A DNA stretch of 64,000 bases, taken from the NCBI GenBank assembly GCA_015231825.1, contig JADGAV010000009.1:147870-211869 (forward strand), read 5' to 3'. This document shows positions 14,538 to 53,788 of the stretch, piece by piece. Each line of letters starts with the position of its first letter. The stretch's first letter is position 1. The DNA comes from SAR324 cluster bacterium. Its GTDB lineage: Bacteria > SAR324 > NAC60-12. A model generated the notes under the pieces. That model was not told the origin of the DNA and did no database searches. It saw only the letters and a list, made by a program, of their open reading frames with translations. Position numbers and translations under genes: made by a program.

Positions 14538-14677
14538 AGAAAAAGTCTTTTTGAAATCAGCGGCGAATTTTTTAAAAGGAAAATAAATCGGAATGTTGCT
14601 TAAATGCGATCTTGACCGTGACAACAGTATTAATAAGTTTCGCTTCTAAATGTCAAACCTTCTCTGCATAATAAAAG

Positions 14678-16066: not shown

Positions 16067-16111
16067 GTTTCGCCGGTAGTAAATTGATTATCCACTTCCT
16101 GAGAAAACATT

Positions 16112-22399: not shown

Positions 22400-23455
22400 A
22401 TGGATCGAGAAAAAGAATTTACGGGAATTATGCCTGTTCGAGAGTCATCGCTTTTCGATGTGGATGCCTTGCAGGACTATATGGAAAAAAATATTGATAA
22501 TTATAGCGGCAATTTGGAAGTCCGGCAGTTCAAAGGCGGGCAGTCCAATCCGACTTATCTTTTGAGTGCAGGTGGCGTCCAATATGTCATGCGTCGGAAA
22601 CCTGCAGGCATATTGCTCAAGTCAGCACATGCGGTGGATCGGGAGTTTCGCGTGCTTTCCGCCCTGGCTTCAACAAGTGTTCCCGTGCCCAAAATGATAT
22701 GCCTGTGCATGGACGAGTCTGTGATTGGGACCTGGTTCTATATTATGGAATACTGCAAAGGGCGAATATTCTGGGAAATGAGTTTGCCGGAAATACTTCC
22801 TCTGGAACGGGGAAGTATTTATGACGCCATGAATGACACCATTGCCAATCTCCATCAAATTGATTATATCTCGGCAGGATTAGAAGATTTTGGAAAGCCT
22901 GAAAACTATGTTTCCAGACAGATTGCGCGTTGGACAAAACAGTACCAGGCTTCCAAAAATGAAGAGATTCCGGCAATGAGTCATCTTATTGAGTGGCTTC
23001 CTGAAAATATCCCTGAGCATGAAGAATGTTCCATTGTTCATGGAGATTTTCGCATGGATAATCTTGTTTTTCATGAAAAAGAATCTCGTCTGATTGCAGT
23101 TTTAGATTGGGAAATTTGTACGTTGGGACATCCGATTGCAGACTTCAGTTACCACTGCATGCAATGGCGGCTTCCATCGAATGTGTTTTACGGCATAGCT
23201 GATCTGGATCTGAAAGCCTTGGGAATTCCGACCGAAGAAGAGTATGTTGCTGCATATTGTCGTCGAACTGGGCGTGTAGAGATTAAAAATTGGGATTTTT
23301 ACATGATCTACAACATGTTCCGTCTCGCAGCAATTCTTCAGGGAATCATCGGCAGGGTCCGTGACGGGACAGCTGCCAATTCGCAAGCAGAAACGGTTGC
23401 TCCATTTATCCGTCCTCTTGCCGAAAAAGGGTGGGATGAAGTTCAAAAATTGTGA
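22400..23455 (+). CDS. phosphotransferase enzyme family protein (APH/ACAD10-like kinase fold)
   Basis: Catalytic loop HGDFRMDNLVF and metal-binding LDWEICTLGHPIADF, characteristic of the aminoglycoside/choline-kinase-like phosphotransferase family. Confidence 0.75.
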   Translation: MDREKEFTGIMPVRESSLFDVDALQDYMEKNIDNYSGNLEVRQFKGGQSNPTYLLSAGGVQYVMRRKPAGILLKSAHAVDREFRVLSALASTSVPVPKMICLCMDESVIGTWFYIMEYCKGRIFWEMSLPEILPLERGSIYDAMNDTIANLHQIDYISAGLEDFGKPENYVSRQIARWTKQYQASKNEEIPAMSHLIEWLPENIPEHEECSIVHGDFRMDNLVFHEKESRLIAVLDWEICTLGHPIADFSYHCMQWRLPSNVFYGIADLDLKALGIPTEEEYVAAYCRRTGRVEIKNWDFYMIYNMFRLAAILQGIIGRVRDGTAANSQAETVAPFIRPLAEKGWDEVQKL

Positions 23456-32348: not shown

Positions 32349-33599
32349 TCAGTAATCCGGGGGTGAGTCGGCAGATGTCAACAAGAAAGTGCCCAGCAGG
32401 GAAAGTATAGACACGCTCAGAAAAGGGATCGTGTATCCATGGAAGAGATCATGGAGAACTCCCATCAGACCGGGGCCGATTGCGATCCCAATGCTGATCA
32501 GCATCCAACCGAATGAATAGATTCTACCATAATCCCTGAGTCCAAAGGAATCTGCAACGAGGAGGGGTTGGAGCATCAACAGATTCCCCATTGTCATTCC
32601 AAAAGCAACTGTCCCCAGAATTAGAATGTCTCCTGAAGTCCCGAATGCCAACACCGTTAAAGCAATTGCCTGGAGCAGCATCAATGCGACAATCAGCGAT
32701 CGAATACTGATATATCGATGAACGACCCATCCTCCGATCAATCTCGAAATGACACTGACTCCTGCTAAAACAGAAATAGCAGTGGCGGCCATTTCTCCAC
32801 TCACCCGGTCATTGACCACCTTGAATAAATGGGCAATCGCTCCGACTTGAGACATCATGATTACGATGAAACTGCTTATCATGATAATAAAGTACCTGCC
32901 GGCAATTGCTTTTTTGTAAGGAACTCCACGCTGAGTTTGATGATCAGAATTGATGTCTGATTTGAGTGCAGCACCATCCATCCCCATTTTTAAAAAGGCG
33001 GGTTCAGAGCGGACGAAAACGGCTGTGATCGGAAAAATTCCCAGAAAATAGATCACCCCGAACCAAAAAGTGGCTTTCTGCAGTCCCATCTCGTGAATCA
33101 TTTTTGCAGAAAGCGGAATCAAAATGACTCCCCCCACCGACAATCCTGTAGAAGCGATCGAGAGGGCAACGGCTCGCTTTTGATTGAACCAGTTGGCGAC
33201 AAGTGTGGTGCCGGGAACCAGAGAGGAAAACGAAAATCCCACTGCAAAAATAAAATACACGGTGTACAGCTGCCAGATTTCCCTGATAAATCCGATTGCC
33301 ACCAAACTGAAAGCTCCGACTATGGAACCGATCGTGATGGTAAAACGGGGGTCGTATTTTTTCATGAGGTTGGCCGCCAGGAGTCCGCTCATTCCACTGG
33401 TGATAAAAAACAGAGTGATGGCACTGGACGCATAGGTGACGGAAAATCCACGTTCAGCGATCAGGGCGGTCATAATTACGGAAAGATTGTAAAAACCCAA
33501 TCCGGAGGAAAACATCAGCATAACAAACACTGCAAGCACAACCTTCCATCCATAGTAGATCGAACCGGTGTGATCTCGCATCGAGTTTTGAAATTTCAT
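32349..33599 (-). CDS. MFS transporter
   Basis: 416 aa, 12 TM helices. Confidence 0.75.
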   Translation of the reverse strand: MKFQNSMRDHTGSIYYGWKVVLAVFVMLMFSSGLGFYNLSVIMTALIAERGFSVTYASSAITLFFITSGMSGLLAANLMKKYDPRFTITIGSIVGAFSLVAIGFIREIWQLYTVYFIFAVGFSFSSLVPGTTLVANWFNQKRAVALSIASTGLSVGGVILIPLSAKMIHEMGLQKATFWFGVIYFLGIFPITAVFVRSEPAFLKMGMDGAALKSDINSDHQTQRGVPYKKAIAGRYFIIMISSFIVIMMSQVGAIAHLFKVVNDRVSGEMAATAISVLAGVSVISRLIGGWVVHRYISIRSLIVALMLLQAIALTVLAFGTSGDILILGTVAFGMTMGNLLMLQPLLVADSFGLRDYGRIYSFGWMLISIGIAIGPGLMGVLHDLFHGYTIPFLSVSILSLLGTFLLTSADSPPDY

Positions 33600-33747
33600 C
33601 TATGTTCGAGCAAAAAAATTGGACGAATTCGCGAGGAACGTGTGAACTTTGTGGGGGATCCTCTAATGAGAAAGGGTCCTCAATTTGGAATTGAAACTCC
33701 CCCCTGTTCTAGCAGGGAGAGTTTCGGCAGGGGATTGATCCGCATTA

Positions 33748-34944
33748 TTATTCAGCACCGATGATGCAGACAGCAGCGACATTTTGGTGAGGTGCTCCTC
33801 CCAAATTATGAGTCATGCCCATAGAAGGCTGCCCCAGTTGACGCTGTTCTGCACGACCCTGGAGCTGCAGATACATTTCATACAGCATACGCAGTCCGGA
33901 TGCCCCGATCGGATGACCAAAACATTTCAACCCGCCGTCTATCTGACAGGGCACTTTACCATCCGCATCATAGAATCCATCCATCACGTCTTTTATTGCT
34001 CCTCCTTCCGGTGAAATGAAAAGATCTTCCATTGTCACCATTTCGGTGATGGAGAAACAATCGTGGACTTCAAACATGCTGACTTGCTCCCGAGGATTGT
34101 CAATGCCTGCTTCTTTATAGGCTTTTTTAGCCGCAATTCTGGTGGTATGAAAGTAGCTGCCGTCCCAGGAATTGTGTCCTGTTTCTGAGCCGCTGGACAA
34201 AGCCAGTTGCAGGGCCTTGACCGTGATCAGATTTGTTTTTCCCATAGATCTGGCGATCTCGGGCGTCGTGACAATGGCGCATGCGGAACCATCACTGACG
34301 CCGCAGCAATCAAACAAACCAAGGGGTTCAGCAATCATCGGAGCATTGATGACCTGCTCTTCAGTGACTGCTTTCTGCAAATGGGCTTTTGGGTTTTTTG
34401 CTCCATTGGCATGGCTCTTGACAGAAACATGTGCAATCGCTTTTTTTAAATCCTCCGCTTTGACATTGTGCTTTGCACGATAAGCGCTTGCCAATTGTGC
34501 GAAATTACCAGGTGCAGATCCCGTCGCTTGCCATTGGGGTGACAAGGTTCCGACACCACTGGCAGGCAATCCTCCGTAGCCGGTATCCTTAAGCTTTTCA
34601 ACCCCGAGTGCCAGCGCAATATCGCAGGCTCCGGAGGCAACAGCATAGACGGCACCCCGGAATGCTTCTGAACCGCTTGCGCAAAAATTTTCGACTCGGG
34701 TGACGGCAATATTGGGGAGCCGCAGGGCCATTGAGAGCGGAAGTCCCGATTTCCCAACGTGCACATCTTCTATGGCAGTTGAAAACCAGGCGGCATCCAG
34801 TTGTTTCGGTTCAATTCCAGCGTCCGACATGGCTTCCAAATACGCTTCCACCATCAATTCTTCAGCACCTGCATCCCATCTTTCCCCAAATTTTGAGCAT
34901 CCCATCCCCAGGATTGCCACTTTGTCTTTAATTCCAGTTGCCAT
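33748..34944 (-). CDS. SCP-x-type thiolase (acetyl-CoA C-acyltransferase / nonspecific lipid-transfer protein thiolase domain)
   Basis: Catalytic Cys region VENFCASGSEAF, C-terminal GHPIGASGLR and Cys-containing tail. 398 aa, typical of SCP-x/Ltp-type thiolases. Confidence 0.8.
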   Translation of the reverse strand: MATGIKDKVAILGMGCSKFGERWDAGAEELMVEAYLEAMSDAGIEPKQLDAAWFSTAIEDVHVGKSGLPLSMALRLPNIAVTRVENFCASGSEAFRGAVYAVASGACDIALALGVEKLKDTGYGGLPASGVGTLSPQWQATGSAPGNFAQLASAYRAKHNVKAEDLKKAIAHVSVKSHANGAKNPKAHLQKAVTEEQVINAPMIAEPLGLFDCCGVSDGSACAIVTTPEIARSMGKTNLITVKALQLALSSGSETGHNSWDGSYFHTTRIAAKKAYKEAGIDNPREQVSMFEVHDCFSITEMVTMEDLFISPEGGAIKDVMDGFYDADGKVPCQIDGGLKCFGHPIGASGLRMLYEMYLQLQGRAEQRQLGQPSMGMTHNLGGAPHQNVAAVCIIGAE

Positions 34945-34973
34945 TGTTGTTCTCCTTTTTTTAAATTGAAGAT

Positions 34974-36425
34974 TTATCGGATTGGCACCGCTTTCCAGAA
35001 ATAACGAACGAATCCACGACGTTCGTCAAAACCCTTGATTCTAAAAACCATTCTTACAGCGGTACCAACGTCAATTTCTCCCACTGCTACATCAGTAAAA
35101 TCTGTCATGAAGCGTCCTCCCTTGTCAAACACTATCATTCCATAATGTGAGGGGGGATCCATCGTATAAGTTAAATAATCTGCCGACCAGCTTTGAATTT
35201 TTGCGTTCTCATTGACAAAACTGTAAGGGTCTTGAGTATGTGGGGCCGCGCAGTCCGGGTTGACACAAACATCTTGCCGAGGAAACTGCGGACTGCCGCA
35301 TTGGCGGCATTTTCCTCCCACTAATCCAAGAATCATGTCTCGTCTGCGATAAAGAGTGGTCAATGCGGTTTTGTTATCTCGTTCTGCCCGCATGCCATAT
35401 TCTTTGTCAATCAGTCTGTTAAACGCGAGGAACCGGTTGTAATTGGATTCCTCCTGACGATTGGCCAGAGACCCCCGGATACCGTTTGGTTTGCTCATTT
35501 TTGCCAGGTGTTCAGTCACCCGGAATATGAGCACATCACAACCCTGCCCAAAACTGGCGACCATGATCAATTGCCCTGCACGGACGTCTTCCTCCATGCG
35601 ATTCAACAGCATGATTAAAGGATGAGCAACTCCGGTATCTCCGCATGTTTGTGCCAAATTGTCGCAGAGGATTTCACTTGAAATTCCTGCTGCTTTCGCA
35701 GCGGTCTCAGCGGCCCTGCCGATGGTGGCGGGTAAAACAAAATGATTGATTGCCTCTGCAGGAAGATTTGTTTTTGCCAGAGCTTGCGCGATGGTTGGAG
35801 GAATAATTTTTTTATACCCTTCATCTCGAATCCAACGCTCTTCCCAGTTGTAATCAAATTGCTGCCCTTCTCCCTTAAAATGATCTACAAAATCTACAGT
35901 TGTGCTATGTCCGCCCAAATATTCCAAAATCACATGCTCGGTTCCAATTGTCACTGCGGCGGCACCGTCTCCAAACGCCAGTTCCTGTGTGCTGGATGGT
36001 CTGGTCTTACGATGATCTGAAGCAACAACCAAAGCGTTTTGATAGCTTCCCCCTTTTACCGCAGCAAGAGCCTGCATCAAGGCCGAGGTTCCCGCCCTTT
36101 GCGATGAGCCGATGTCGAGTGAAGCAATGTCCTGCCCCAAGCTTAAAGCTTCCACAATTATTCCTGCATTTTGACGATCCACAAAGGGCATACTGGTTGA
36201 GGCAAAATATATTGCATCTGGAGATTTGAGACTGATCGGAGCAATGCAGTCCCGTGCGGCTTCCACTCCCATTGTAACGGAATCTTCATCCCAATTGCAC
36301 ATCGATCGTTCGAATTTTGCCTTTCCACGTAATGACGGGTCTGCCCAGGAATGTGCGTCTACAATTGATTTGCGCAAGAGACGCAAGCGTGGAATATAAC
36401 CACCAAAAGAGGTAATTCCTACCAT
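34974..36425 (-). CDS. HMG-CoA-synthase-like condensing-enzyme domain fused to a DUF35 OB-fold/zinc-ribbon domain
   Basis: N-terminus MVGITSFGGYIPRLRL...DEDSVTMGVEAAR resembles archaeal HMGCS. C-terminus CRQCGSPQFPRQDVCVNPDCAAP plus an OB-fold region is DUF35-like. The position of the catalytic Cys appears to read SSQRAGTSAL. Confidence 0.65.
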   Translation of the reverse strand: MVGITSFGGYIPRLRLLRKSIVDAHSWADPSLRGKAKFERSMCNWDEDSVTMGVEAARDCIAPISLKSPDAIYFASTSMPFVDRQNAGIIVEALSLGQDIASLDIGSSQRAGTSALMQALAAVKGGSYQNALVVASDHRKTRPSSTQELAFGDGAAAVTIGTEHVILEYLGGHSTTVDFVDHFKGEGQQFDYNWEERWIRDEGYKKIIPPTIAQALAKTNLPAEAINHFVLPATIGRAAETAAKAAGISSEILCDNLAQTCGDTGVAHPLIMLLNRMEEDVRAGQLIMVASFGQGCDVLIFRVTEHLAKMSKPNGIRGSLANRQEESNYNRFLAFNRLIDKEYGMRAERDNKTALTTLYRRRDMILGLVGGKCRQCGSPQFPRQDVCVNPDCAAPHTQDPYSFVNENAKIQSWSADYLTYTMDPPSHYGMIVFDKGGRFMTDFTDVAVGEIDVGTAVRMVFRIKGFDERRGFVRYFWKAVPIR

Positions 36426-36882
36426 AACAACTTTTCCTCCTCTATTTCTAGATTGCTCGCAATTGCGAATTGATTAGGGATACTTGAGGTTGTTTCCTGT
36501 TTTTCGTAAAATGACTGTCAGCATTGTTCCAATCGGTGTTTTGGGGTCACCGGGTGAGGTCGTAGTAATTCATGGAAAGAGAACTCGATGCGGCTTGCCA
36601 CCCTTTTGGTTCAGATTTGGAAAACTGTTTCTCGTAGTGATGATCAGTTTATTTGTTCTCTTGTAAGATTCGTGATTTTGAACAATTTTGCAAGGGAAAT
36701 CGATGAACCGGACCCTGTCGATACGGCTTTTTTGGGAATCAAAGATAAATTTGAAATTTGCCCGGGATCGTTCTAGTTTAAAGCTCGCATTAAAATAACA
36801 GGTTTCATGGATGGGATCCGGGAGTAAGATGCGTTTCAAACGATGTCCTGAAACAGTTTGATGGATTTTTTCCTGATCAGCA

Positions 36883-37914
36883 TTGAGGATGAAAATGGCA
36901 AAAAAGACAATTGAAGTAGCCGGACCTTTTTTCGAAGATTTTGAGCATGAACAGCTGATGGAACAGGCACCTTCGCTAACCATTAGCTCAGGATATGCAG
37001 TAATGTATCAAAGCCTGTTTGGCGACCGGTTGCGCTTACCCCTGGATCGGGAACTCTGTAAAAAAATACTCGGCAGCGAAGCCACTTTGGTCAATCCTCA
37101 TCTTCTTTATAACCTGGTGACAGGACAAACGACCTATGCTTCTCAAAACGTCAAAGGCAATTTATTTTACCGCGGCCTGGTTTTCAAGAAACCGGTTTTC
37201 ATTGGTGACACGCTGAACACGAATACCAAAGTACGGGCTCTCCGGCAAAATAGACACAAAGAAGGACGTCCTGCGACCGGGATGGTTGTTCTGGAAATTC
37301 AGGTCGTCAATCAGTTTCAGGAAGAAGTGATGTTCTTTTGGAGATGTCCGATGATTCCCTGCCGGGATCCCAATGCCGACACAGGGCATGCGGATTCGTT
37401 TGATTCCATTCCTTCCGAAATCAATCTGGAGGCAGTCAAGAAAATGATTCCTTCTCATTGGAAACTTGACCGATTTCAGCAAGACTGTTCAGGAGATCAT
37501 TTTGCGCAGATTGCCGAAGAAACAATCTATAAAATTGCTGCGAGGGACACGGTCACCTCGGCTCCGGAATTGGTCCGGATGACCTTGAATATGGCCACGA
37601 CCCATACGGATGCCGGCGCCAGCACCTACAAAAGGCGTTTGGTCTATGGAGGCCACACCATCTCCGTCGCCGCCGCTCAGATCGTCAGGGCTCTTCCCAA
37701 TACTGTCACCGTGATGGCATGGAAGGCCTGCAGTCACACGGCTCCTGTTTTTGAAGGTGATATTTTGCGTACCGAAATGTCTGTGGGTAAAAAACATGCT
37801 CTTGAAAAAAACGGAGGTTTGGTGGAACTTCATGCAGAGGTATATGCAAATCGGGAAGAAGAAACGGATGAAGTCAAAGTTCTGGATTGGGAATTGATCG
37901 TTTTGATGGCTTGA
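36883..37914 (+). CDS. MaoC-like (R-specific) enoyl-CoA hydratase, probable double hot-dog
   Basis: 343 aa, twice a single hot-dog. Hot-dog hydratase-type segments in both halves. Sits in an acyl-CoA gene cluster. Confidence 0.65.
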   Translation: MRMKMAKKTIEVAGPFFEDFEHEQLMEQAPSLTISSGYAVMYQSLFGDRLRLPLDRELCKKILGSEATLVNPHLLYNLVTGQTTYASQNVKGNLFYRGLVFKKPVFIGDTLNTNTKVRALRQNRHKEGRPATGMVVLEIQVVNQFQEEVMFFWRCPMIPCRDPNADTGHADSFDSIPSEINLEAVKKMIPSHWKLDRFQQDCSGDHFAQIAEETIYKIAARDTVTSAPELVRMTLNMATTHTDAGASTYKRRLVYGGHTISVAAAQIVRALPNTVTVMAWKACSHTAPVFEGDILRTEMSVGKKHALEKNGGLVELHAEVYANREEETDEVKVLDWELIVLMA

Positions 37915-37918
37915 TTCA

Positions 37919-39151
37919 GTGGAGTTGAAACAAATAGAGGGATTTATGAATGGAATATTGAATGGAATGCGGGTTGTAGAAGGTTCGGCTTTTGTTGCAG
38001 CCCCTTCTGGAGGAATGACGCTGGCTTCATTGGGGGCAGATGTGATTCGCTTTGATCTGCCTGGAGGAGGGTTGGACTATAAACGATGGCCCGTTGCAAA
38101 AAGCGGTCAAAGTCTTTACTGGGCAGGACTGAACAAGGGCAAACGTTCCATCACCGTTGATTTTCGTACCCCGAAGGGACAGGAAATTCTGACGGCGTTG
38201 ATTTGTTCTGAAGGAGAAAACAAAGGTCTTTTTCTCACAAATTTTCCGGCAAAAGGGTGGTTGGACTACGAAAACTTAAAAAAGCGTCGCTCGGATCTGA
38301 TCATGCTCAACGTGAAAGGAGACCGGCACGGGGGATCTCAGGTGGATTATACCGTCAATCCGCGAGTAGGGTTTCCCACAGCAACGGGGTTTGAAGACTC
38401 AGAACCGGTCAATCATATGCTGCCTGCCTGGGATCTGATTACGGGTCAAATGGGGGCTGTCGGCCTGCTGGCTGCTGAACGCCATCGACGATTGACGGGG
38501 CAGGGGCAGCTGATCAATCTCCCGCTGGCCGATGTGGCAATGGCGACATTGGGGAATCTGGGAATTATTGGAGAAGTGATGATCAACAAGGAAGATCGAC
38601 CGCGCTACGGAAACTTCATGTATGGTGCTTTTGGAAAAGATTTTGAAACAAAAGATGGAAAGCGGATCATGATCATTGCCATTTCTCTCAGGCAATGGAG
38701 TGGTTTATGCCGTGCTACGGATTCGACGGAGGAAATGGAAGGCTTAAGCCGGCGCTTGAAGCTTGATTTCAGAGAAGAAGGGAATCGCTTCCTGGCACGG
38801 GAATCCATTGCGGCTCTGCTCATCCCCTGGATGAAAAGTCATGATTTGCAGGAAATTGAAAAAGTGTTTGAAGCGAACGGAGTTTGTTGGGGACCCTATC
38901 AGACCTTTCGGGAATTTGTTGAATCCGATCCTGAATGTACGGTTGAAAACCCCCTCTTTAAGAAGGTTAATCAACCAGGCATCGGGGACTATCTTGTTCC
39001 CGGTTATCCTGTTGATTTTTCCGCTGTTCCGCGAGTAGAACCCGGCCCGGCCCCTGAGCTTGGAGCCGATACCGACGAGGTATTGTCTATCGAGTTGGGG
39101 CTCTCTGACAGCGAAATCGGGAAACTCCATGATCAGAAAATTGTCGTGTAA
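37919..39151 (+). CDS. family III CoA-transferase (CaiB/BaiF/alpha-methylacyl-CoA racemase family)
   Basis: N-terminal GMRVVEGSAFVAAPSGGMTLASLGADVIRFD motif typical of CoA-transferase family III. 410 aa. Confidence 0.85.
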   Translation: MELKQIEGFMNGILNGMRVVEGSAFVAAPSGGMTLASLGADVIRFDLPGGGLDYKRWPVAKSGQSLYWAGLNKGKRSITVDFRTPKGQEILTALICSEGENKGLFLTNFPAKGWLDYENLKKRRSDLIMLNVKGDRHGGSQVDYTVNPRVGFPTATGFEDSEPVNHMLPAWDLITGQMGAVGLLAAERHRRLTGQGQLINLPLADVAMATLGNLGIIGEVMINKEDRPRYGNFMYGAFGKDFETKDGKRIMIIAISLRQWSGLCRATDSTEEMEGLSRRLKLDFREEGNRFLARESIAALLIPWMKSHDLQEIEKVFEANGVCWGPYQTFREFVESDPECTVENPLFKKVNQPGIGDYLVPGYPVDFSAVPRVEPGPAPELGADTDEVLSIELGLSDSEIGKLHDQKIVV

Positions 39152-39196
39152 TAAATTTTAGAAAAAAATAAATCTGTCCCGTTTTTTCTACTATTT

Positions 39197-40891
39197 TTGA
39201 GGAATCAAATGGAAATTTCAAATCGAGTCGGAGAAGCTCAGAAAGTACTTGGGCAGGGGCGTAATCTTCTGCAGTCCTGTTGGAGTACCGTCAAAAATCA
39301 TTGTTTGATCAATGGCAGGATCTCTTCATCCAGGTTGGATGAATTTCAACTGGTCTGTTATGAACTTGCCCTGTCAACTGCTGAGATCACCGGTGCTGAA
39401 CTGTTGTTGGAGTATGCCCAAAGACTTCGCAGCAAAGCGTCGAACCCCGGCGCGGAAATGATGCTGGAAGAGAAGATCGCTTTTACTTTTTGTTCTGAAA
39501 TCCTGCACTCGGTTCGCAGCAGGCTCGCAGCTAGAAAAGCGGATTTCGGCTTGTCTTCAACGACTTTGAATACTGCCCTTTATTCGCAGGAAACGGAAAA
39601 TTTTTGCGACCGCTATCTGAGATCCCAAAGCTTGGAGGAACTCGGGAGGTCTCTGCTGGAACTGGATGGAAGAACAGGAGACTCTCTTTTGGATGAAGAG
39701 AAAACAATCATGGTGGAAAGCTTCCGGAAATTTGCAGAAAAAGTTGTCGTTCCTCTGGCGGAAGAAATTCATCGGAAAGATCTGATCATTCCGGATGAAA
39801 TAATAAATCCCTTGATCGAATTGGGTTGTTTCGGGCTTTCAATTCCCATGAAGTATGAGGGGATTCAGGCAGATGATCAGGAAGACAACCTGGGGATGAT
39901 TGTCGTTACCGAAGAACTTTCCAGAGCGTCTCTGGGAGCGGCAGGGAGTTTGATCACTCGTCCGGAAATAATGGCAAAATCTCTGCTCAGAGGAGGAACT
40001 GAAGAGCAAAAACAGGACTGGCTGCCAAAGCTCGCTGCAGGCGATCCGCTATGTGCAATTGCGATCACGGAACCGGATTTCGGTTCCGATGTGGCTTCCA
40101 TTCAATTGAAGGCGTCAAAAACTGAAGGAGGATGGCTCCTGCAGGGAGAAAAGACATGGTGTACTTTTGGAGGAAAAGCCGGTGTCCTGCTGACTTTGGC
40201 CAGAACCAACCCGGATATGAGTTTGGGGCACCGGGGATTGAGCTTGTTTATAGTGGAAAAACCCAGCAGCGACGGCCATGAATTCAACTTCACCCAAAAG
40301 GAAGGAGGAAGCATCAGCGGAAAAGCAATCCCCACTTTAGGCTATCGCGGAATGCACTCTTTCAATGTTTTTTTTGATGATTACTTTGTTCCGGATTCCG
40401 GATTACTGGGAGAAGAAGCAGGTGAAGGAAAAGGATTTTATTTCACGATGGCCGGGTTTTCCGGCGGCAGAATCCAAACCGCCTCAAGGGCGAACGGCTT
40501 GATGCAGGCAGCCTATGAACAGGCACTGGAATATGCAAAAAATCGAAAAATCTTTGGAAAACCACTTTCCAATTATCAATTGACCCTGGTCAAACTGGCG
40601 AAAATGGCCTGCCTGCTTACTGCGTCCCGTCAATTCACCTATTCTGTCGGGCGCCTGCTGGATTCGGGCAACGGACAAATGGAAGCCAGCATGGTGAAAT
40701 TGTTTGCCTGCAAATCTGCGGAATGGATTTGCCGTGAAGCCACTCAAATTCATGGTGGCTTGGGGTATGCAGAAGAAACTCCAGTCAGCCGTTATTTTGT
40801 CGATTCCCGCGTGCTCTCTATCTTTGAAGGAGCGGAAGAAACGCTAGCCTTGAAGGTGATTGCCAAAACTATGATTGAGCAGGCGGACTAA
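39197..40891 (+). CDS. acyl-CoA dehydrogenase with N-terminal extension
   Basis: ACAD middle and C-terminal domains (GSDVASIQL, catalytic region YAEETPVSRYFVDSRVLSIFEGAEE). 564 aa. Confidence 0.8.
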   Translation: MRNQMEISNRVGEAQKVLGQGRNLLQSCWSTVKNHCLINGRISSSRLDEFQLVCYELALSTAEITGAELLLEYAQRLRSKASNPGAEMMLEEKIAFTFCSEILHSVRSRLAARKADFGLSSTTLNTALYSQETENFCDRYLRSQSLEELGRSLLELDGRTGDSLLDEEKTIMVESFRKFAEKVVVPLAEEIHRKDLIIPDEIINPLIELGCFGLSIPMKYEGIQADDQEDNLGMIVVTEELSRASLGAAGSLITRPEIMAKSLLRGGTEEQKQDWLPKLAAGDPLCAIAITEPDFGSDVASIQLKASKTEGGWLLQGEKTWCTFGGKAGVLLTLARTNPDMSLGHRGLSLFIVEKPSSDGHEFNFTQKEGGSISGKAIPTLGYRGMHSFNVFFDDYFVPDSGLLGEEAGEGKGFYFTMAGFSGGRIQTASRANGLMQAAYEQALEYAKNRKIFGKPLSNYQLTLVKLAKMACLLTASRQFTYSVGRLLDSGNGQMEASMVKLFACKSAEWICREATQIHGGLGYAEETPVSRYFVDSRVLSIFEGAEETLALKVIAKTMIEQAD

Positions 40892-40993
40892 AATTTTTTT
40901 TGGTATAGTCCGCAAATTCCTGTTTTCCGATTAAAATTTATTGCAAACCGATTTTTCAGGCTGCCTTTAATTCCAAAAAAGCTATTTATTCAC

Positions 40994-41764
40994 TTATGCC
41001 AGGCGAACTGCTCCATCCAAGCGGATGGTTTCTCCACTGAGCATCGTGTTTTCAATAATCGATTTTGCCAAAGCTGCATATTCGTCAGCACGTCCCAGAC
41101 GTTTTGGAAAAGGGGTGCTGGCTGCCAGGGCTTCCCGTGCTTTTTCAGGGAGACCATCCATCATGGGGGTATGAAAGAGACCGGGTGCAATAGTCATCAC
41201 CCGCATTCCGTAATCGGCAAATTCTCGTGCAATGGGAAGAGTCAATCCCACAAGTCCTCCCTTGGATGCAGAGTAGGCAGCTTGTCCGATTTGACCGTCA
41301 TAAGCGGCTACCGAAGCAGTGTTGATGAAAACTCCTTTTTCGCCGTCTGCATTTGTTGCCTCATTGTGGAACATTTTCTCGGAAGTATGACGAATGACAT
41401 TCATGGTCCCGATTAAATTGATATTGATCACTTTGGCAAACGAATCAAAGGTCATCATGCCTCTCTTTTGACTGAGGACTTTTGCAGGTGTCCCTACCCC
41501 GGCACAATTGATCACGATGTGAAGTGAAGCAAATTTTGCAATCACACGGTCCACACCAGCTTTTACCTGCTCATCGTCTGAGACATCTGTTTTAACAAAA
41601 AGGACTTTGTCCCCCAATTCTTCTGAAATCGCCTTTCCGGTTTCTTCATTGTAGTCGAAAATTGCAACACCACCTGCACCTTCTGCAAGCAATAGGCGGA
41701 CGCACGCGGCCCCAAGACCAGAAGCCCCGCCGGTGACAAGGGCATATTTATTAGTAATTTCCAT
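40994..41764 (-). CDS. SDR, 3-hydroxyacyl-CoA dehydrogenase type II (HSD10-like)
   Basis: YALVTGGASGLGAA, NCAG, YSASKGG motifs. Start taken at MEITNK to avoid overlap with the upstream gene. Confidence 0.8.
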   Translation of the reverse strand: MEITNKYALVTGGASGLGAACVRLLLAEGAGGVAIFDYNEETGKAISEELGDKVLFVKTDVSDDEQVKAGVDRVIAKFASLHIVINCAGVGTPAKVLSQKRGMMTFDSFAKVININLIGTMNVIRHTSEKMFHNEATNADGEKGVFINTASVAAYDGQIGQAAYSASKGGLVGLTLPIAREFADYGMRVMTIAPGLFHTPMMDGLPEKAREALAASTPFPKRLGRADEYAALAKSIIENTMLSGETIRLDGAVRLA

Positions 41765-41805
41765 TTGATTCTCCTGAAAAATTGTAAAATTGAAAACACG
41801 CAAAA

Positions 41806-42423
41806 TTATGATTGCTTTTGAGCACGTAGAATTGCCTCTCGTATCAAGCATAGACGATCGTTGCCGAAATACATGTCATTCCGGTTTACGAAGACTGTAG
41901 GAGAACCAAAACCTCCCCGGTCTATTAACTCCTGAGTATTGGTTTTGAGCCGTTCTTTAATTTCGGGCTTCGCGATTTCCTGAAAAAAGTCATCTGGCTC
42001 CAATCCGACTTGCCGGCAGATTTCCGTCAGGATTTCTGTTTGGGAAATATCCTGATCATCCCCCCAATAGGACTTGAATACCGCATTTGCAAAAGGAAGC
42101 AATTTTCCTTGCTTTTCAGCAATGAAGCAACCCCGCATCGCACGAACACTATTGACTGGAAAGACGGTAGGAGGCATTTTGATTTGAATGCCGTAGTGAT
42201 TTGACCAGTCAGCAAGATCTTTGATCATGTATTGGGCTTTAGGAATCACTGGATTTTCCCGGGACTGATAGACACTGGGGTTGATGCTGTTAAAAATGCC
42301 TCCCACCAGAATCGGCTTCCATTCAATCTGAACCTCCCGTTCTTTTGCCAACGGTTGAATCCCGATAAAGCCCAGATAAGTCCATGGACTGGAGCAATCA
42401 AAAAAAAATTCCACTGAAACCAT
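41806..42423 (-). CDS. 2-hydroxychromene-2-carboxylate isomerase / DsbA-like protein, second paralog
   Basis: FFFDCSSPWTYLGF N-terminus and GGFGSPTVFVNRNDMYFGNDRL C-terminus. Confidence 0.7.
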   Translation of the reverse strand: MVSVEFFFDCSSPWTYLGFIGIQPLAKEREVQIEWKPILVGGIFNSINPSVYQSRENPVIPKAQYMIKDLADWSNHYGIQIKMPPTVFPVNSVRAMRGCFIAEKQGKLLPFANAVFKSYWGDDQDISQTEILTEICRQVGLEPDDFFQEIAKPEIKERLKTNTQELIDRGGFGSPTVFVNRNDMYFGNDRLCLIREAILRAQKQS

Positions 42424-49958: not shown

Positions 49959-51050
49959 ATGAGTTTTATGCGAATTGAACTGCCCGAAAAAATGAGCCTG
50001 GAAACCATTCCGCAATTTCTTTCCCAAATTGATTCGGTGCTTTCCAAACCTGCTGGTGAAGAATTGGTTTTAGATTTTTCCCGGGTCAATCATTTGGATA
50101 TGTCCGGAGTGGGTACTGTGGTGCGATGCATGGAGCGGTGCCGAACAGAAAAAATTGAAATTCGGTTTGAAAATGTAGATCCCAAACTCTCCCATTTGCT
50201 GGGATTTGTGAATATAGAAGATGTGGCAGGCAGCACCGGTCCGCCACCTAAAAAAAGGGGGATTTTTGAAAAAATTGGCCGAGACACCCGCTGGTACTTT
50301 AAAGATACTCTTGGATTTTTAGAGTTTTTGGGAAAAACAACAAGCATTCTCGCAAAAGAACTGCTCCGCCCTGATAAAATTCGATGGTCCGATACCTTTT
50401 ATTATCTGGAAGCCACGGGAGTCAATGCGCTGCCCATTGTCGGATTGATTTCATTGTTGCTCGGAATGATCATTGCTTTTCAATCTTCAGATCAGTTGGC
50501 CCAGTTTGGGGCGAACATATTTGTTGTCGAGCTGGTCTCGATTTCAATGCTGAGAGAATTGTCCCCATTGATCACTTCCATCCTGATAGCAGGTCGATCC
50601 GGCTCTGCTTTTACTGCAGAAATTGGTACAATGCAGGTTTCTGAGGAAGTTGATGCGATGAGAGTGATTGGGCTGGACTTGACCGAATATTTGATTTCTC
50701 CAAAATTCTGGTCTTTACTGATCGCGTTGCCGCTCCTTGTTTTCTTTGGAGATTTGATGGGGCTGATCGGGGGGGCCGTTATCGCAAACTGGAAGCTGGA
50801 TATTCCCTACATGACATTTATTTTAAGATTGCAGGAAAAGGTGGCAGTCACTCATTTGGTTCTGGGATTGGGGAAGTGCTTTGCTTTTGCAGCAATTATC
50901 AGCATTGTCGGATGCTACCGCGGAATGCTGGTGACCAGTGGTGCAGGGAGCGTTGGCCGGCAGACAACGTCCTCCGTGGTGACTTCTATCTTTCTCGTAA
51001 TTATTGCCGATGCGGCTTTTTCGATCATTTTTACGATGGTCGGGATTTAG
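49959..51050 (+). CDS. mlaE: MlaE-family ABC permease with N-terminal STAS (MlaB-like) domain fusion
   Basis: N-terminal about 100 aa STAS-like (VLDFSRVNHLDMSGVGTVV), followed by MlaE/YrbE permease helices. Confidence 0.8.
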   Translation: MSFMRIELPEKMSLETIPQFLSQIDSVLSKPAGEELVLDFSRVNHLDMSGVGTVVRCMERCRTEKIEIRFENVDPKLSHLLGFVNIEDVAGSTGPPPKKRGIFEKIGRDTRWYFKDTLGFLEFLGKTTSILAKELLRPDKIRWSDTFYYLEATGVNALPIVGLISLLLGMIIAFQSSDQLAQFGANIFVVELVSISMLRELSPLITSILIAGRSGSAFTAEIGTMQVSEEVDAMRVIGLDLTEYLISPKFWSLLIALPLLVFFGDLMGLIGGAVIANWKLDIPYMTFILRLQEKVAVTHLVLGLGKCFAFAAIISIVGCYRGMLVTSGAGSVGRQTTSSVVTSIFLVIIADAAFSIIFTMVGI

Positions 51051-51074
51051 AATTCTGGTGTGTGAACCGAAAGA

Positions 51075-51842
51075 TTGATGATGAACGTTATTGAAGTCAA
51101 TAAACTGGTCACTAAATACGGAGCAAGGGTGATTCACAATGAATTGACCTTTAACATTCAAAAGGGAGAGATTTTTGTGATTTTGGGCGGCAGCGGCTGC
51201 GGGAAAAGTACCCTGCTCAAGCACCTGAGCCGCTTGCTCATGCCCAGCAGCGGCCAAATACTGATCGATGGCACCGATGTTACCTTTCTTCATGAAAGTT
51301 CCTTGCAGGAAGCAATGAGGCCGGTCGGATTTATGTTTCAATCGGGTGCTTTATTTGGTTCGCTTACACTTCTGGAAAATGTGGCGGTTCCCTTGTTTAA
51401 ATTCACGAAATTGGACAAAGAGACCGTGAAAGCAATATCCCGGGTCAAATTGGGGATGGTCGGCCTGGGTGGATTTGAGGGGTACTATCCCCATGAAATC
51501 AGCGGCGGTATGAAAAAAAGGGCAGGAGTTGCAAGAGCAATGGCGCTTGATCCTAAAATTCTTTTGCTGGATGAACCCAGCGCGGGCCTGGATCCGATCA
51601 GTGCGGATGAACTGGACGATTTGATTTTAGGATTGAACCGGGCGTTGGGGATTACTTTTGTGATCGTGACCCACGAATTGCAGAGCATTTTCAAAGTCGC
51701 TCAGAGAGTAATCATGTTGGGGCGGGGAAACATACTCGCGGAAGGGGATCCGAATCTTCTGAAAGATTCCGAGAAACCCTGGGTATCTGATTTTTTTAAC
51801 CGCCGTGGTAAATTCAAACAATATTTGACGAGCAATCCATGA
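51075..51842 (+). CDS. mlaF: MlaF-family ABC transporter ATP-binding protein
   Basis: Walker A GGSGCGKST, signature ISGGMKKRAGVARAM, Walker B LLLDEP. Confidence 0.85.
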   Translation: MMMNVIEVNKLVTKYGARVIHNELTFNIQKGEIFVILGGSGCGKSTLLKHLSRLLMPSSGQILIDGTDVTFLHESSLQEAMRPVGFMFQSGALFGSLTLLENVAVPLFKFTKLDKETVKAISRVKLGMVGLGGFEGYYPHEISGGMKKRAGVARAMALDPKILLLDEPSAGLDPISADELDDLILGLNRALGITFVIVTHELQSIFKVAQRVIMLGRGNILAEGDPNLLKDSEKPWVSDFFNRRGKFKQYLTSNP

Positions 51843-53788
51843 CTCCAAAAAGCAAGAATATTTTAGTTGGCATGTTTGTGATTTTTTTCTCCGCAGGAGC
51901 TGTTGCTTTTATAACCTGGCTTGGTACGACCACAGTCAGAGAAGAAACCGATACTTACCTCGCCTACCTTGAAGAATCGGTTTCAGGTCTCTCTCAAAAC
52001 TCTCCTGTTAAATACAAAGGGGTGACAATAGGCCAGGTGGAGAAAATCAGGATCAACCCGGAAAATTCCAACCAGGTTGAACTGCAATTGATGATTAAGC
52101 GTGGCACGCCCATCAAAGTTGATTCGGAATTGATCTTGACCTCTCAGGGGATTACCGGACTCCAATATATTGAAATAACTGGAGGAAGTGAAGAGAAAGG
52201 ACTGTTGAAAGCAAAGCCAGGAGACAATTTCCCGGTCATTGTCTCCGGAAAATCTACCCTGGCGACAGTAGAAGCCGCAATTGGCCCGATGCTGAGCAAT
52301 ATCAACCTCGCGATTGAGGACATTCGGCAGGTGCTCAAAAGCGCCAGTCCTGAACGCTTGACGAATATTTTGTCGGATGTTGAAAGTATCACCGAAACAG
52401 TAGCGGATAATTCTACAGCGATTGTTGAAGATCTCAATCAAACCGGAGAAGGTCTTAAACAGGTAGTGGAACAGACCAATCAGCTGATGGATAATGCCAA
52501 TAATTTTTTTAATAATCGTGAAGATCAGGTCGTGGCGATGATTGGAGAAGTTCAACAGGCTTCCAGCGCGGTTAACCGTTTGTTGGGAAGCATCGAACAG
52601 GAAAAAATCATTGGGAATCTCGGTAAAACCGTCAGTCATGTTGATCAACTTGTAGAAAATTTAAATGGAAGGGGAGAAGGTCCTTTGTTGGATCTCGTTG
52701 AAGGAATGAGTCAATCCACCACCCGTTTGAACCGCCTGCTTGCGCGATTTGAAGAGGAGCAGATTGTGCAGGGAGTCGGGAAAACAATCACTCGTGTTGA
52801 CCAACTGGTAGCCAATGTGGAAGAAAAGTTCAATGGACCTGTTGAGTCGATGCTCAGTGAAATTCAGCAGTCGGCTCAAGCGGCCAATCGGATCGTAACA
52901 AAAGTCGAAGAAGAGCAGCTTGTTGAAGGAGTGGGACAAGTCGTTGCCAAGGTTGAAAAAATTGTAGATAGTCTGGATCAGACGGCCAGCAATGCGGATC
53001 AGTTTTTTGCAAACTTGAATAAAACTGCTGGAAGTGTCGAAATATTTATTTCAAATTTAAACCAGACAATGACCAAAACCGATCAGTTCATTTCCCACAT
53101 GGATCTGACGCTCGTTTATGTTGACCAATTCATCAGTAATCTGGATCAAACAACCAGCAACGTTGATCAATTTGTTTCGAATCTTAATACTACTGCTTCC
53201 AAAGTGGATCAATTTATTGCCGGTCTTGATCAGACAACCGAGGGTATCGAAGATTTTATGCAAGTATTGAGTGAAACTGCCGCGAAGACGGATCGGTTTA
53301 TTGGCAATCTGGATCGCACCACTGGCAACGTGGATCGATTTGTGGGCAATCTGGATCAAACTGCAGTAAAAGCCGACCGGTTCATGGTGAATTTGAATCA
53401 GTCGGTCGGCAATATGAATCAATTTATCGCGACGATGAATCGGGCGGCCGAGAAGACGGATCAGTTTGTTGCCACGTTGAATCAGACGGCGACTGAAATC
53501 GATCAGCTCTTTGATACTTTGAATGATCAAGTGGTCGAAAATGAATTCCAGGCGATGCCGAAATCAATCAATTTGACGCTGAAAGAAATTCGAAAACTGA
53601 CGGGGACCTTAAATCAATCGGCAGAAGATGCAGAAATTTCTTCGACCATGGAGGATTTGAAGAAAACTCTGGAGGACATCCAGACATTTGCTCAAACCTG
53701 GACTCAGGTGGCAGAGGAACTTGAAAACCAGCCGTCTGCCTTGATATTTGGGGAGTCTAAAGCGGAAATCAATGTTGCTCCAGAATGA
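51839..53788 (+). CDS. mlaD: MCE/MlaD-family protein with long C-terminal coiled-coil tandem-repeat region
   Basis: N-terminal TM segment, MCE domain (SPVKYKGVTIGQVEKIRI), then about 14 tandem copies of a 14-residue repeat (xDQFxxNLxQTxxx). Confidence 0.75.
   Translation: MTPKSKNILVGMFVIFFSAGAVAFITWLGTTTVREETDTYLAYLEESVSGLSQNSPVKYKGVTIGQVEKIRINPENSNQVELQLMIKRGTPIKVDSELILTSQGITGLQYIEITGGSEEKGLLKAKPGDNFPVIVSGKSTLATVEAAIGPMLSNINLAIEDIRQVLKSASPERLTNILSDVESITETVADNSTAIVEDLNQTGEGLKQVVEQTNQLMDNANNFFNNREDQVVAMIGEVQQASSAVNRLLGSIEQEKIIGNLGKTVSHVDQLVENLNGRGEGPLLDLVEGMSQSTTRLNRLLARFEEEQIVQGVGKTITRVDQLVANVEEKFNGPVESMLSEIQQSAQAANRIVTKVEEEQLVEGVGQVVAKVEKIVDSLDQTASNADQFFANLNKTAGSVEIFISNLNQTMTKTDQFISHMDLTLVYVDQFISNLDQTTSNVDQFVSNLNTTASKVDQFIAGLDQTTEGIEDFMQVLSETAAKTDRFIGNLDRTTGNVDRFVGNLDQTAVKADRFMVNLNQSVGNMNQFIATMNRAAEKTDQFVATLNQTATEIDQLFDTLNDQVVENEFQAMPKSINLTLKEIRKLTGTLNQSAEDAEISSTMEDLKKTLEDIQTFAQTWTQVAEELENQPSALIFGESKAEINVAPE
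52950..53545 (+). repeat. in-frame 42-bp tandem repeats (about 14 copies) within the MCE gene
   Basis: DNA periodicity gatcaatttgtttcgaatct / gatcagtttgttgccacgtt etc. Protein repeats VDQFVSNLNTTASK / VDQFIAGLDQTTEG / TDRFIGNLDRTTGN ... Confidence 0.7.

Follow-up and report, generated by a model that had tools for sequence, protein, structure and literature searches.

A 64-kb stretch of DNA from a SAR324 cluster bacterium (hereafter the window) contains, at positions 33748–42423, a cluster of seven open reading frames (ORFs) on two strands. On the minus strand, a thiolase gene follows a gene in which a 3-hydroxy-3-methylglutaryl-CoA synthase (HMGS)-like domain is fused to a DUF35 domain, and divergently from this pair runs an operon encoding a hydratase, a CoA-transferase, and an acyl-CoA dehydrogenase (ACAD). 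The original prediction, made from the sequence, had described these genes as a complete set for 2-methyl-branched or steroid-side-chain β-oxidation, with a catalytically dead HMGS-like domain beside an active thiolase. All seven ORFs lie at the positions it gave, and their Pfam and NCBIfam domains fit its description. The loss of the HMGS active site stands, while the three plus-strand enzymes are predicted to act on methylsuccinyl-CoA and mesaconyl-CoA. The features of the locus and its immediate flank, with the evidence for each, are as follows.

33748..34944 (−): thiolase, archaeal acetoacetyl-CoA thiolase (ACAT)/SCP-x-like, 398 aa (NF004810, PDB matches, motifs)
34974..36425 (−): fusion protein, HMGS-like and DUF35, 483 aa (Pfam, PDB, AlphaFold2 model)
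34974..35333 (−): DUF35 part of the fusion, zinc ribbon and OB fold (Pfam, 6esq_E match, invariant Cys)
36099..36101 (−): Gln109 codon CAA at the position of the HMGS catalytic Cys (alignment to 6esq_I Cys114, codon check)
36426..36894 (no strand): divergent intergenic region of 469 bp, between fusion–thiolase (−) and hydratase–Mct–Mcd (+)
36895..37914 (+): double hot-dog MaoC hydratase, Rv0216-like/mesaconyl-CoA-hydratase-like (Pfam, PDB)
37919..39151 (+): predicted mesaconyl-CoA C1–C4 transferase (Mct), a family III CoA-transferase (TIGR04253, Mct structures, active-site residues)
39197..40891 (+): predicted (2S)-methylsuccinyl-CoA dehydrogenase (Mcd), P. migulae type, 564 aa (8ciw_A match, residues)
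40994..41764 (−): HSD10/type-II 3-hydroxyacyl-CoA dehydrogenase, a short-chain dehydrogenase/reductase (SDR) (PDB 4pn3, human HSD10)
41806..42423 (−): DsbA-like protein, 2-hydroxychromene-2-carboxylate isomerase/GST-kappa family (Pfam DSBA, PDB)
32349..33599 (−): major facilitator superfamily (MFS) transporter, monocarboxylate/oxalate-formate-like (Pfam MFS_1, NCBIfam SfMCT)

The fusion protein is composed of an HMGS-like domain (approximately residues 1–335), a linker, and a DUF35 domain (approximately residues 365–483), and matches the Pfam families ACP_syn_III, ACP_syn_III_C, zf-ChsH2 (residues 368–392), and OB_ChsH2_C (residues 409–462). The assignment of both halves is borne out by PDB matches; the N-terminal 330 residues are most similar to PhlA (9skh_A, 6e-33), followed by archaeal HMGS (6esq_I, 2e-23) and MucA, and the C-terminus matches 6esq_E, the DUF35 subunit of the archaeal thiolase/HMGS/DUF35 complex. 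Two NCBIfam models for archaeal HMGS remain below their cut-offs (PRK04262, 170 vs 244 bits; another model, 107 vs 353 bits). The AlphaFold2 model of the fusion (pLDDT 74, pTM 0.73) has as its fold neighbours, in order, PhlA, MucA, archaeal HMGS, and then bacterial HMGS and FabH.

For the comparison of active sites, the sequence of 6esq_I was rebuilt from the alignment, and its numbering reproduces the E82/C114/H238/N270 tetrad given in PMC12960953. In the fusion protein these positions are occupied by Thr77, Gln109, Pro232, and Asp263, respectively. Gln109 resides within the sequence GSSQRAGT and is encoded by a CAA codon, so the register read by eye in the original prediction was right and the catalytic Cys is absent, although the loss is wider than was read and extends to all four tetrad residues. 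With the complete tetrad lost, the HMGS-like domain is predicted to be catalytically inactive. Gln109 is invariant in 25 of 25 distinct fusion homologues with identities down to 43%, including the Pseudomonas, Variovorax, Spongiibacter, and marine-operon versions, whereas the other tetrad positions drift, to Thr, Cys, Asp, or Ser at the first, to Pro or Ala at the third, and to any residue at the fourth. The homologues also share the motifs RQNAG, DFVDHF, and WEERWIRDEG in the HMGS-like domain, and the zinc ribbon (CxxC...CxxxxC) formed by C373, C376, C387, and C392 is invariant in the alignment. Gln109 may mimic an acylated cysteine and thereby stabilize the pseudo-active site.

A joining of two separate genes by error had been raised as a caveat. 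The fusion has an exact counterpart, named “OB-fold domain-containing protein”, in a SAR324 cluster metagenome-assembled genome (MAG), more than 100 full-length homologues with 58–85% identity are listed, and 568 relatives are found in reference genomes of Parvibaculum, many Alpha- and Gammaproteobacteria, SAR324, and Leptospirales. An artefact can be dismissed, because the same fused gene forms a large conserved family in which the Gln is invariant, and which also occurs in Pseudomonas, Variovorax, and Spongiibacter.

The thiolase gene begins 29 bp downstream of the fusion gene on the same strand. Its product scores 705 bits against NCBIfam NF004810 (cut-off, 403 bits), and its closest PDB matches are the archaeal-type acetoacetyl-CoA thiolases 7yvy and 6esq_A, followed by BbsB (7pxp, 150 bits); archaeal ACATs reach 184–200 bits, vs approximately 65 bits for PhlC. 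The protein belongs to the SCP-x-related Thiolase_C_1 group. The cysteine of the NFCASG motif (Cys88), which had been read as retained, is indeed present, together with His294 (HDCF) and His344 (GHP, with G343), and by homology with the characterized Pseudomonas fluorescens complex described below and with the solved archaeal, PhlACB, and MucABC complexes the enzyme is likely to catalyze the CoA-dependent thiolysis of a 3-oxoacyl-CoA. The loss of the tetrad in one partner and the retention of all catalytic residues in the other fit the proposed scaffold role of the HMGS-like domain, and the pseudo-HMGS/DUF35 protein would then be a non-catalytic structural partner that holds, and probably solubilizes, the thiolase. 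An Ltp2-like retro-aldolase role of the thiolase on citramalyl-CoA was also considered and is ruled out by the nucleophilic cysteine and both histidines.

The arrangement itself, which had been taken as unrecognized, has been known since January 2026, and the SAR324 locus adds a member to the bacterial ACAT/HMGS–DUF35 class. A survey reported 1,030 bacterial loci in which genes for HMGS, ACAT, and DUF35 occur together, of which 1,001 lack secondary-metabolism neighbours, and the fused, tetrad-less type is the majority class (PMC12960953; Nat Commun 2026;17:2196). The characterized complex from Pseudomonas fluorescens consists of a fused HMGS–DUF35 without the E-C-H-N tetrad and an ACAT that keeps the Cys, HDxF, and GHx motifs; it formed neither acetoacetyl-CoA from acetyl-CoA nor HMG-CoA, and cleaved acetoacetyl-CoA in vitro, while its ACAT H294Y mutant had almost no activity (PMC12960953). 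The histidine of the SAR324 thiolase bears the same number, His294. All the sequence features of this class are found in SAR324: a fused HMGS–DUF35, the lost tetrad, and an adjacent thiolase with C88-A-S, HDCF, and GHP. The two systems, likened here by published features, also share the lack of polyketide synthase (PKS) or nonribosomal peptide synthetase (NRPS) neighbours, and no PKS or NRPS gene is present in the 64-kb window. The retrieved Pseudomonas-type fusions are 43–47% identical to that of SAR324, and the thiolases 72–74%. The P. fluorescens-type complex was labelled an “evolutionary intermediate” without an assigned pathway (PMC12960953); it is treated there as an orphan, in contrast to the pair in SAR324 and other lineages, which is linked to Mcd and Mct.

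The long ACAD encoded by the plus-strand operon aligns over its full length, including the N-terminal extension, with Mcd of Pseudomonas migulae (8ciw_A; 623 bits, approximately 55% identity). The extension comprises approximately 165 residues, with the Pfam ACAD core starting at residue 167, and aligns with that of P. migulae Mcd from residue 13. Mcd is defined by an arginine triad that binds the terminal carboxylate (R252, R376, and R421 in PdMCD) and by the catalytic E535 (PMC5798300); the equivalent R255, R384, R431, and E544 of the SAR324 protein are invariant in the homologue alignment. The pocket motif LCAIAITEP is identical to that of the P. migulae enzyme, and the position of the C2-methyl pocket, Ala285 in PdMCD, is Ile in SAR324, as in P. 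migulae Mcd (I275). The P. migulae enzyme oxidizes methylsuccinyl-CoA and has an unusually high activity on succinyl-CoA (PMC10266731). Judged by the full-length match, the arginine triad, and the catalytic Glu, the long ACAD is a predicted (2S)-methylsuccinyl-CoA dehydrogenase, and its Ile places it with the P. migulae subtype; the designation as an extended ACAD was correct, but too generic.

The CoA-transferase belongs to family III, as proposed, but not to its AMACR/BaiF branch. It aligns with the Mct structures 7xkg and 8apq over 404 residues with only one or two single-residue gaps (570–573 bits, approximately 65% identity). The best NCBIfam model by far is TIGR04253 (584 bits, under its 725-bit cut-off), the next reaching 115 bits, and no AMACR, racemase, or BaiF model or structure appears among the matches in NCBIfam or, at E < 1e-10, in the PDB. 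The equivalents of the Mct residues Arg47 and Asp165 are kept, the motifs LDYKRWP and LPAWDLITG are conserved, and the inserted glycine-rich loop of the intermolecular family III enzymes is absent, which identifies the protein, at the level of sequence, as an Mct orthologue. The hydratase is a double hot-dog MaoC protein, as had been recognized, and matches MaoC_dehydratas and, barely over the cut-off of 26.5 bits, MC_hydratase (PF19315, 27.3 bits). Its closest structure is Rv0216 (2bi0, 241 bits), whose function is unassigned, followed by a Chloroflexus MaoC protein (4e3e, 104 bits) and Mch (8hgn, 79 bits). In a related 3.47-Mb genome (L166), a homologue of the hydratase is encoded beside an Mct-like gene, and in Cycloclasticus (L167) beside a gene for an HpcH/HpaI lyase; this gene context supports its putative assignment as mesaconyl-CoA-hydratase-like.

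Together, these three enzymes are predicted to convert (2S)-methylsuccinyl-CoA to mesaconyl-C1-CoA, mesaconyl-C4-CoA, and a hydroxy-dicarboxylyl-CoA of the citramalyl-CoA type. The plus-strand operon reads as acting on C4/C5-dicarboxylyl-CoA esters and not, as first suggested, on 2-methyl-branched fatty acyl-CoA or steroid side chains. Mcd is known from the ethylmalonyl-CoA pathway, and Mct and Meh from the 3-hydroxypropionate bi-cycle; the SAR324 ACAD and transferase are orthologous to these enzymes by score and active-site residues, and the order of reactions, Mcd, then Mct, then hydratase, is the same. Unlike those pathways, the SAR324 locus has no ccr, ecm, or mcl and no carbon-fixation context, its Mcd, which has an Ile in the methyl pocket, belongs to the P. 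migulae subtype, and its hydratase is Rv0216-like, not a canonical Mch or Meh. Elsewhere in the window, a search for the ethylmalonyl-CoA pathway and lyase genes ccr, ecm, mcl, and ccl found none.

Gene neighbourhoods were compared in two samples, 80 reference-genome loci anchored on the fusion and 80 metagenome loci anchored on Mcd. In the first sample, the thiolase is the only universal neighbour, lying directly downstream of the fusion in 65 of the 80 loci with 69–92% identity (79–92% across classes). None of these 80 loci has the hydratase, Mct, SDR, DsbA-like, or MFS gene as a neighbour of the fusion, and de novo clustering of the neighbours returned only lineage-specific synteny (glmS, glmU, recG, and APH with DUF6285) and shadow ORFs. 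Mcd lies within 10 kb of the fusion in 6 of the 80 loci, all gammaproteobacterial, and directly after the thiolase in four; in both of the gammaproteobacterial loci looked at, Mcd is followed by a luciferase-like oxygenase. The Mcd-anchored loci include classic clusters of the ethylmalonyl-CoA type (Mcd-Ecm-MeaB-Ccr, in some cases beside a divergent Mct-hotdog-HpcH lyase unit) and Mcd-(hydratase 2)-Mct loci, both without the pair, and a third group of approximately 10 marine contigs and 3 partial ones, in which ACAD (379 aa)-fusion-thiolase-Mcd-SDR (305 aa)-MFE-2-type hydratase 2-Mct are encoded on the same strand. The pair lies immediately upstream of Mcd in 13 of the 80 contigs.

A further layout is a 12-gene operon with the order enoyl-CoA hydratase (ECH)-SDR-alpha/beta hydrolase-fusion-thiolase-ECH-ECH-3-hydroxyacyl-CoA dehydrogenase (3HCDH)-hot-dog hydratase-HpcH/HpaI lyase-Mcd-Mct. 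The operon is carried by a metagenome contig (L162) with an Mcd that shares 94% identity with the P. migulae enzyme, by Pseudomonas sp. TCU-HL1 (CP015992), and by Spongiibacter taiwanensis (CP098455) (L162–L164). In TCU-HL1, the operon is followed by genes for a ferredoxin reductase, a ferredoxin, a TetR regulator, and an RND pump. A similar operon on plasmid 3 of Variovorax sp. SRS16 (L165) is preceded by the alpha and beta subunits of a Rieske dioxygenase and followed by a TetR gene. Mct and Mcd of these operons are 51–56% and 50–54% identical to the SAR324 proteins, respectively, and their fusions and thiolases are those compared above. No specific literature on the Pseudomonas 12-gene operon or its substrate was found, and a plasmid search for a link to camphor plasmids gave no CAM plasmid match, although the Variovorax operon surfaced there. 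The closest SAR324 relative (L170; fusion, 85% identical) has the same divergent seven-gene layout without the MFS gene, and a more distant one, with the 3.47-Mb genome, has fusion-thiolase-MFS at one site and hydratase-Mct approximately 150 kb away. The pair is hence linked to Mcd and/or Mct in at least four gene orders: in SAR324, in marine metagenomes, in gammaproteobacterial MAGs, and in Pseudomonas, Variovorax, and Spongiibacter.

Several of the compared loci have features of their own. In a gammaproteobacterial MAG (L034:4809-8750), a single-module NRPS-like protein (C-A-T-TE, 1,313 aa) is encoded on the opposite strand directly upstream of a fusion-thiolase-Mcd-luciferase-like oxygenase operon. 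In three ethylmalonyl-type loci (L082, L085, and L125; e.g., L085:2568-6908 and 10001 onward), Mcd-Ecm-MeaB-Ccr is accompanied by a divergent unit that encodes Mct, a hot-dog hydratase of 285 aa, and an HpcH/HpaI lyase, which suggests a variant of the ethylmalonyl-CoA pathway that exits via mesaconyl-C4-CoA and citramalyl-CoA to acetyl-CoA and pyruvate, not via β-methylmalyl-CoA. In 16 Mcd-anchored loci, a crotonyl-CoA carboxylase/reductase-like protein (ADH_N and ADH_zinc_N) with two C-terminal CBS domains is encoded (L094:16350-18101, 583 aa).

Because the pair is repeatedly gene-linked to Mcd and Mct in four layouts, we infer that the pair and the Mcd/Mct/hydratase enzymes serve the same catabolic route, which would degrade a branched dicarboxylic acid or a related one, a reading for which we regard the balance as about even. 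In such a route, reactions of the β-oxidation type would end in thiolysis by the complex to yield (methyl)succinyl-CoA, either as the shortened acyl-CoA, for example from an intermediate of the 4-methyl-3-oxoadipyl-CoA type, or as the released two-carbon-equivalent fragment, like succinyl-CoA in BbsAB, a precedent for a DUF35-associated thiolase that releases succinyl-CoA (PMC12960953). Mcd would oxidize the thiolysis product to mesaconyl-C1-CoA, and Mct would move the CoA to C4 and so permit hydration. The hydratase would then form a product of the citramalyl-CoA type, to be cleaved to acetyl-CoA and pyruvate by an HpcH/HpaI lyase; such a lyase is part of the Pseudomonas operon and would presumably be encoded elsewhere in the SAR324 genome. 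The same logic is found in anaerobic naphthalene degradation by ThnP and ThnO, where thiolysis is followed by an intramolecular CoA shift and then by an ACAD (PMC11659651): thiolysis leaves the CoA on the “wrong” carboxyl, and the shift by the transferase lets the ACAD continue β-oxidation. ThnP differs in being a family I transferase, which acts on bicyclic substrates and shares no homology with Mct. In other genomes, the neighbouring genes for Rieske dioxygenase, hydrolase, and oxygenase proteins invite the speculation that a cyclic or branched compound is catabolized.

Several observations weigh against a shared route. The pair is solitary in most genomes, where housekeeping genes surround it; Mcd is missing within 10 kb in 74 of the 80 loci and Mct is nearby in none of the 80, so the core role of the pair may be general. 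The sole substrate tested for a family member is acetoacetyl-CoA (PMC12960953), and no lyase gene is present in the 64-kb window. The Rv0216-like hydratase and the HSD10-like SDR, typically S-specific, are unlike the enzymes of the other operons, and the layouts are not strictly equivalent. Some of the approximately 13 marine contigs may stem from related organisms and would then not all be independent. In SAR324, moreover, the link among the proteins is drawn from sequence and gene context.

The pair could instead be a general housekeeping thiolase for short-chain 3-oxoacyl-CoA (acetoacetyl-CoA), and its adjacency to Mcd and Mct would then have no meaning for a pathway. This is a serious rival of the shared route, if on balance a somewhat improbable one. 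It gains from the solitary pairs beside glmS/glmU, recG, and other such genes in most of the 80 genome loci, from the unusually high conservation of the thiolase across classes, from the cleavage of acetoacetyl-CoA by a family member in vitro (PMC12960953), and from the 150 kb that separate the pair from MaoC-Mct in the 3.47-Mb relative; yet it would have to explain the linkage to Mcd/Mct in four gene orders and several classes, when such capture of a housekeeping gene would be rare, and the position of the pair as the immediate upstream neighbour of Mcd in the 13 Mcd-anchored contigs. In an anabolic role, the complex would feed a variant ethylmalonyl-CoA pathway by condensing two molecules of acetyl-CoA, and the exit would run through Mcd, Mct, and the hydratase to citramalyl-CoA and on to acetyl-CoA and pyruvate. 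The archaeal homologue is indeed biosynthetic, L082, L085, and L125 join Mcd-Ecm-MeaB-Ccr to just such an exit, and crotonyl-CoA is a point at which the marine operon's short-chain ACAD, SDR, and hydratase 2 could all meet. However, neither the window nor any pair-containing operon has ccr, ecm, or an epimerase, the pair is missing from the ethylmalonyl-type loci, no acetoacetyl-CoA was formed by the P. fluorescens complex in vitro (PMC12960953), and the Pseudomonas and Variovorax operons, with their Rieske dioxygenase, hydrolase, TetR, and RND pump genes, are clearly catabolic, so that we consider an anabolic role unlikely.

The β-oxidation of 2-methyl-branched fatty acyl-CoA or steroid side chains, which would require an AMACR-like racemase, a long ACAD, MFE-2/HSD10-type enzymes, and an SCP-x thiolase, retains very little probability. 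The HSD10-type SDR and the Thiolase_C_1 membership of the thiolase agree with it, as do the MFE-2-type hydratase 2 and the 305-aa SDR of the marine operons and a heteromeric-looking ACAD pair in L128, but the transferase is approximately 65% identical to Mct, with the Mct catalytic pair and no AMACR among its PDB matches at E < 1e-10, the arginine triad of the ACAD binds a terminal carboxylate beside a small, Ile-filled pocket as in P. migulae Mcd, and no steroid-catabolic genes lie nearby. A separate question concerns the HMGS-like domain, which might not be dead if the invariant Gln confers a new activity, such as a KS-Q-like decarboxylation of malonyl thioesters, or a binding site for dicarboxylyl-CoA. 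Cys-to-Gln replacement is a known gain-of-function change in the thiolase superfamily; the strict conservation of this residue while the other tetrad positions drift, the invariant RQNAG, DFVDHF, and WEERWIRDEG motifs, and the presence of the FabH C112Q structure 9ka5 among the fold matches all point the same way. A KS-Q-like decarboxylase is rated unlikely because the required His and Asn are missing, being replaced by Pro or Ala and by variable residues, respectively. The P. fluorescens complex, furthermore, showed no activity attributable to the HMGS-like domain (PMC12960953), and the conservation of the Gln could reflect mere packing or interface constraints. A live domain is therefore quite improbable, and a dead one remains the preferred reading.

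Beyond the P. fluorescens complex, the SAR324 pair can be compared with several systems in which similar modules are assembled. The archaeal thiolase/HMGS/DUF35 complex has the same three homologous modules (thiolase 184, HMGS 86, and DUF35 32 bits; TM approximately 0.83 on the target). Its own HMGS is active and channels acetoacetyl-CoA to mevalonate, and its DUF35 is a separate protein, whereas in SAR324 the DUF35 is fused and all four residues of a competent HMGS (Glu, Cys, His, and Asn) are replaced. The Friedel-Crafts C-acyltransferases PhlACB of Pseudomonas protegens and MucABC of Streptococcus provide, with PhlA and MucA, the best sequence and fold matches of the pseudo-HMGS. These subunits are likewise tetrad-less, and catalysis sits in the thiolase-like subunit. 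The two differ from the SAR324 pair in that PhlC and MucB lack the HDxF histidine, use phenolic or tetramate acceptors, and belong to biosynthetic (PKS or NRPS-PKS) clusters, while the SAR324 thiolase keeps HDCF.

The original prediction had likened the pair to the Ltp2/ChsH2 system, and the likeness stands insofar as a thiolase-fold protein is held by a DUF35 domain fused to another enzyme, in Ltp2–ChsH2 as in Sal–Shy, and insofar as one partner has in each case lost canonical thiolase-superfamily chemistry. In those systems, however, the thiolase-like protein lacks the nucleophilic Cys and is a retro-aldolase, and the DUF35 is fused to a MaoC hydratase; in SAR324, Cys88 is present, the DUF35 is fused to the HMGS-like domain, and MaoC is a separate gene, and PhlACB and MucABC are the closer analogues. 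The benzoylsuccinyl-CoA thiolase BbsAB is alike in having an SCP-x-type thiolase with a DUF35 zinc-finger partner. The benzylsuccinate pathway to which it belongs likewise uses a family III CoA-transferase, an ACAD whose substrate is a substituted succinyl-CoA, a hydratase, and an SDR, and sets succinyl-CoA free by thiolysis. It differs in that BbsA is a stand-alone DUF35 protein without an HMGS-like domain, the BbsEF transferase is intermolecular, and the pathway is anaerobic and aromatic.

The remaining genes of the cluster are less firmly tied to it. The SDR is of the HSD10 type, as had been predicted, with PDB matches to 4pn3 (268 bits) and human HSD10 (approximately 247 bits), and probably starts at Met30 of its longest ORF (40994-41851). 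The DsbA-like protein matches Pfam DSBA (1.6e-40) and the structures 3fz5, 2imd, and GSTK1. Both genes run convergently toward the hydratase-Mct-Mcd operon, and are kept beside the cluster only in L170, with no counterparts in the other approximately 170 loci examined, so the seven genes do not form the complete set that had been described; the other Mcd/Mct operons carry a different SDR or 3HCDH instead of the HSD10-type SDR, whose membership in the pathway is uncertain. The MFS protein scores below the cut-off of NCBIfam SfMCT (128 bits), is absent in L170 and follows the thiolase in L169, and is probably a separate unit, not a conserved member. A terminator-like hairpin lies between the thiolase and MFS genes (33699-33720).

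The 469-bp divergent intergenic region presumably holds both promoters; it gave no Rfam match and no inverted repeat of at least 10 nt, and Rfam, inverted-repeat, and promoter/terminator scans of the cluster returned only background except for the hairpin after the thiolase. A 10-bp perfect palindrome, CGCAATTGCG, at window positions 36457-36470, approximately 35 bp upstream of the fusion start codon, is too short to judge and was unreported by the repeat tool. The longest ORF of the hydratase begins at 36883, and the NCBI model has 339 aa. ORFs of 100–220 aa at 33093-33764 (+), 36570-36983 (−), and 34172-34766 are antisense to real genes or intergenic, have no support, and are most likely shadow ORFs.

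Other parts of the window hold further gene sets. An APH-family phosphotransferase is encoded at 22400-23455, approximately 10 kb from the cluster, and a pair of APH and DUF6285 genes lies 6–7 kb from the fusion and thiolase in Parvibaculum and SO-S41 loci (L001 17519-18923; approximately 31 Parvibaculum-type loci); such pairs of APH and a small protein are reminiscent of the LvaAB/ACAD10-11 route for 4-hydroxyacyl-CoA. Positions 7674-17392, with an ABC transporter (two permeases, an ATPase with a TOBE domain, and a binding protein), a class III aminotransferase, two divergent glutamine-synthetase-like genes, and a DAO-type FAD oxidoreductase, look like a γ-glutamyl-polyamine catabolism cluster. 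An Mla-like lipid transport set at 49959-53788 comprises a STAS–MlaE fusion, an ABC ATPase, and an MlaD that, at 649 aa, is unusually long and whose C-terminal half resembles a coiled coil, and cobalamin biosynthesis genes at 59933-63468 include a CbiX–CbiC fusion (538 aa), CbiD, and a tetrapyrrole methylase.

A systematic linkage of the pair to Mcd/Mct, the occurrence of these two enzymes in catabolic operons that belong neither to the ethylmalonyl-CoA pathway nor to the 3-hydroxypropionate bi-cycle, and the invariance of the Gln in the fusion were not found in the searched literature, and a 2025 paper lists the ethylmalonyl-CoA pathway enzyme as the only known methylsuccinyl-C1-CoA dehydrogenase. 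Taken further than the shared route in SAR324, and as a tentative proposal that we hold to be possible but less than probable, the orphan ACAT/pseudo-HMGS–DUF35 complexes would be the dedicated thiolases of an undescribed and widespread catabolic route for branched dicarboxylic acids, possibly derived from terpenoids or alicyclic compounds. The route would operate in SAR324, marine gammaproteobacteria, Pseudomonas, and Variovorax, with carbon passing via (2S)-methylsuccinyl-CoA, mesaconyl-C1-CoA, mesaconyl-C4-CoA, and citramalyl-CoA, so that Mcd and Mct would be used outside the ethylmalonyl-CoA pathway and the 3-hydroxypropionate bi-cycle, and the invariant Gln would mark a retained ligand-binding or regulatory function.

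The repeated operon linkage to Mcd and Mct provides a concrete hypothesis of function for the approximately 1,000 loci that were left without a role in PMC12960953, and one of the linked operons surrounds close relatives of the biochemically characterized P. migulae Mcd. To acetate assimilation and CO2 fixation, the settings in which Mcd and Mct are known, the linkage adds catabolic operons, and the proposed route, if true, would constitute a new degradation module in abundant marine bacteria.

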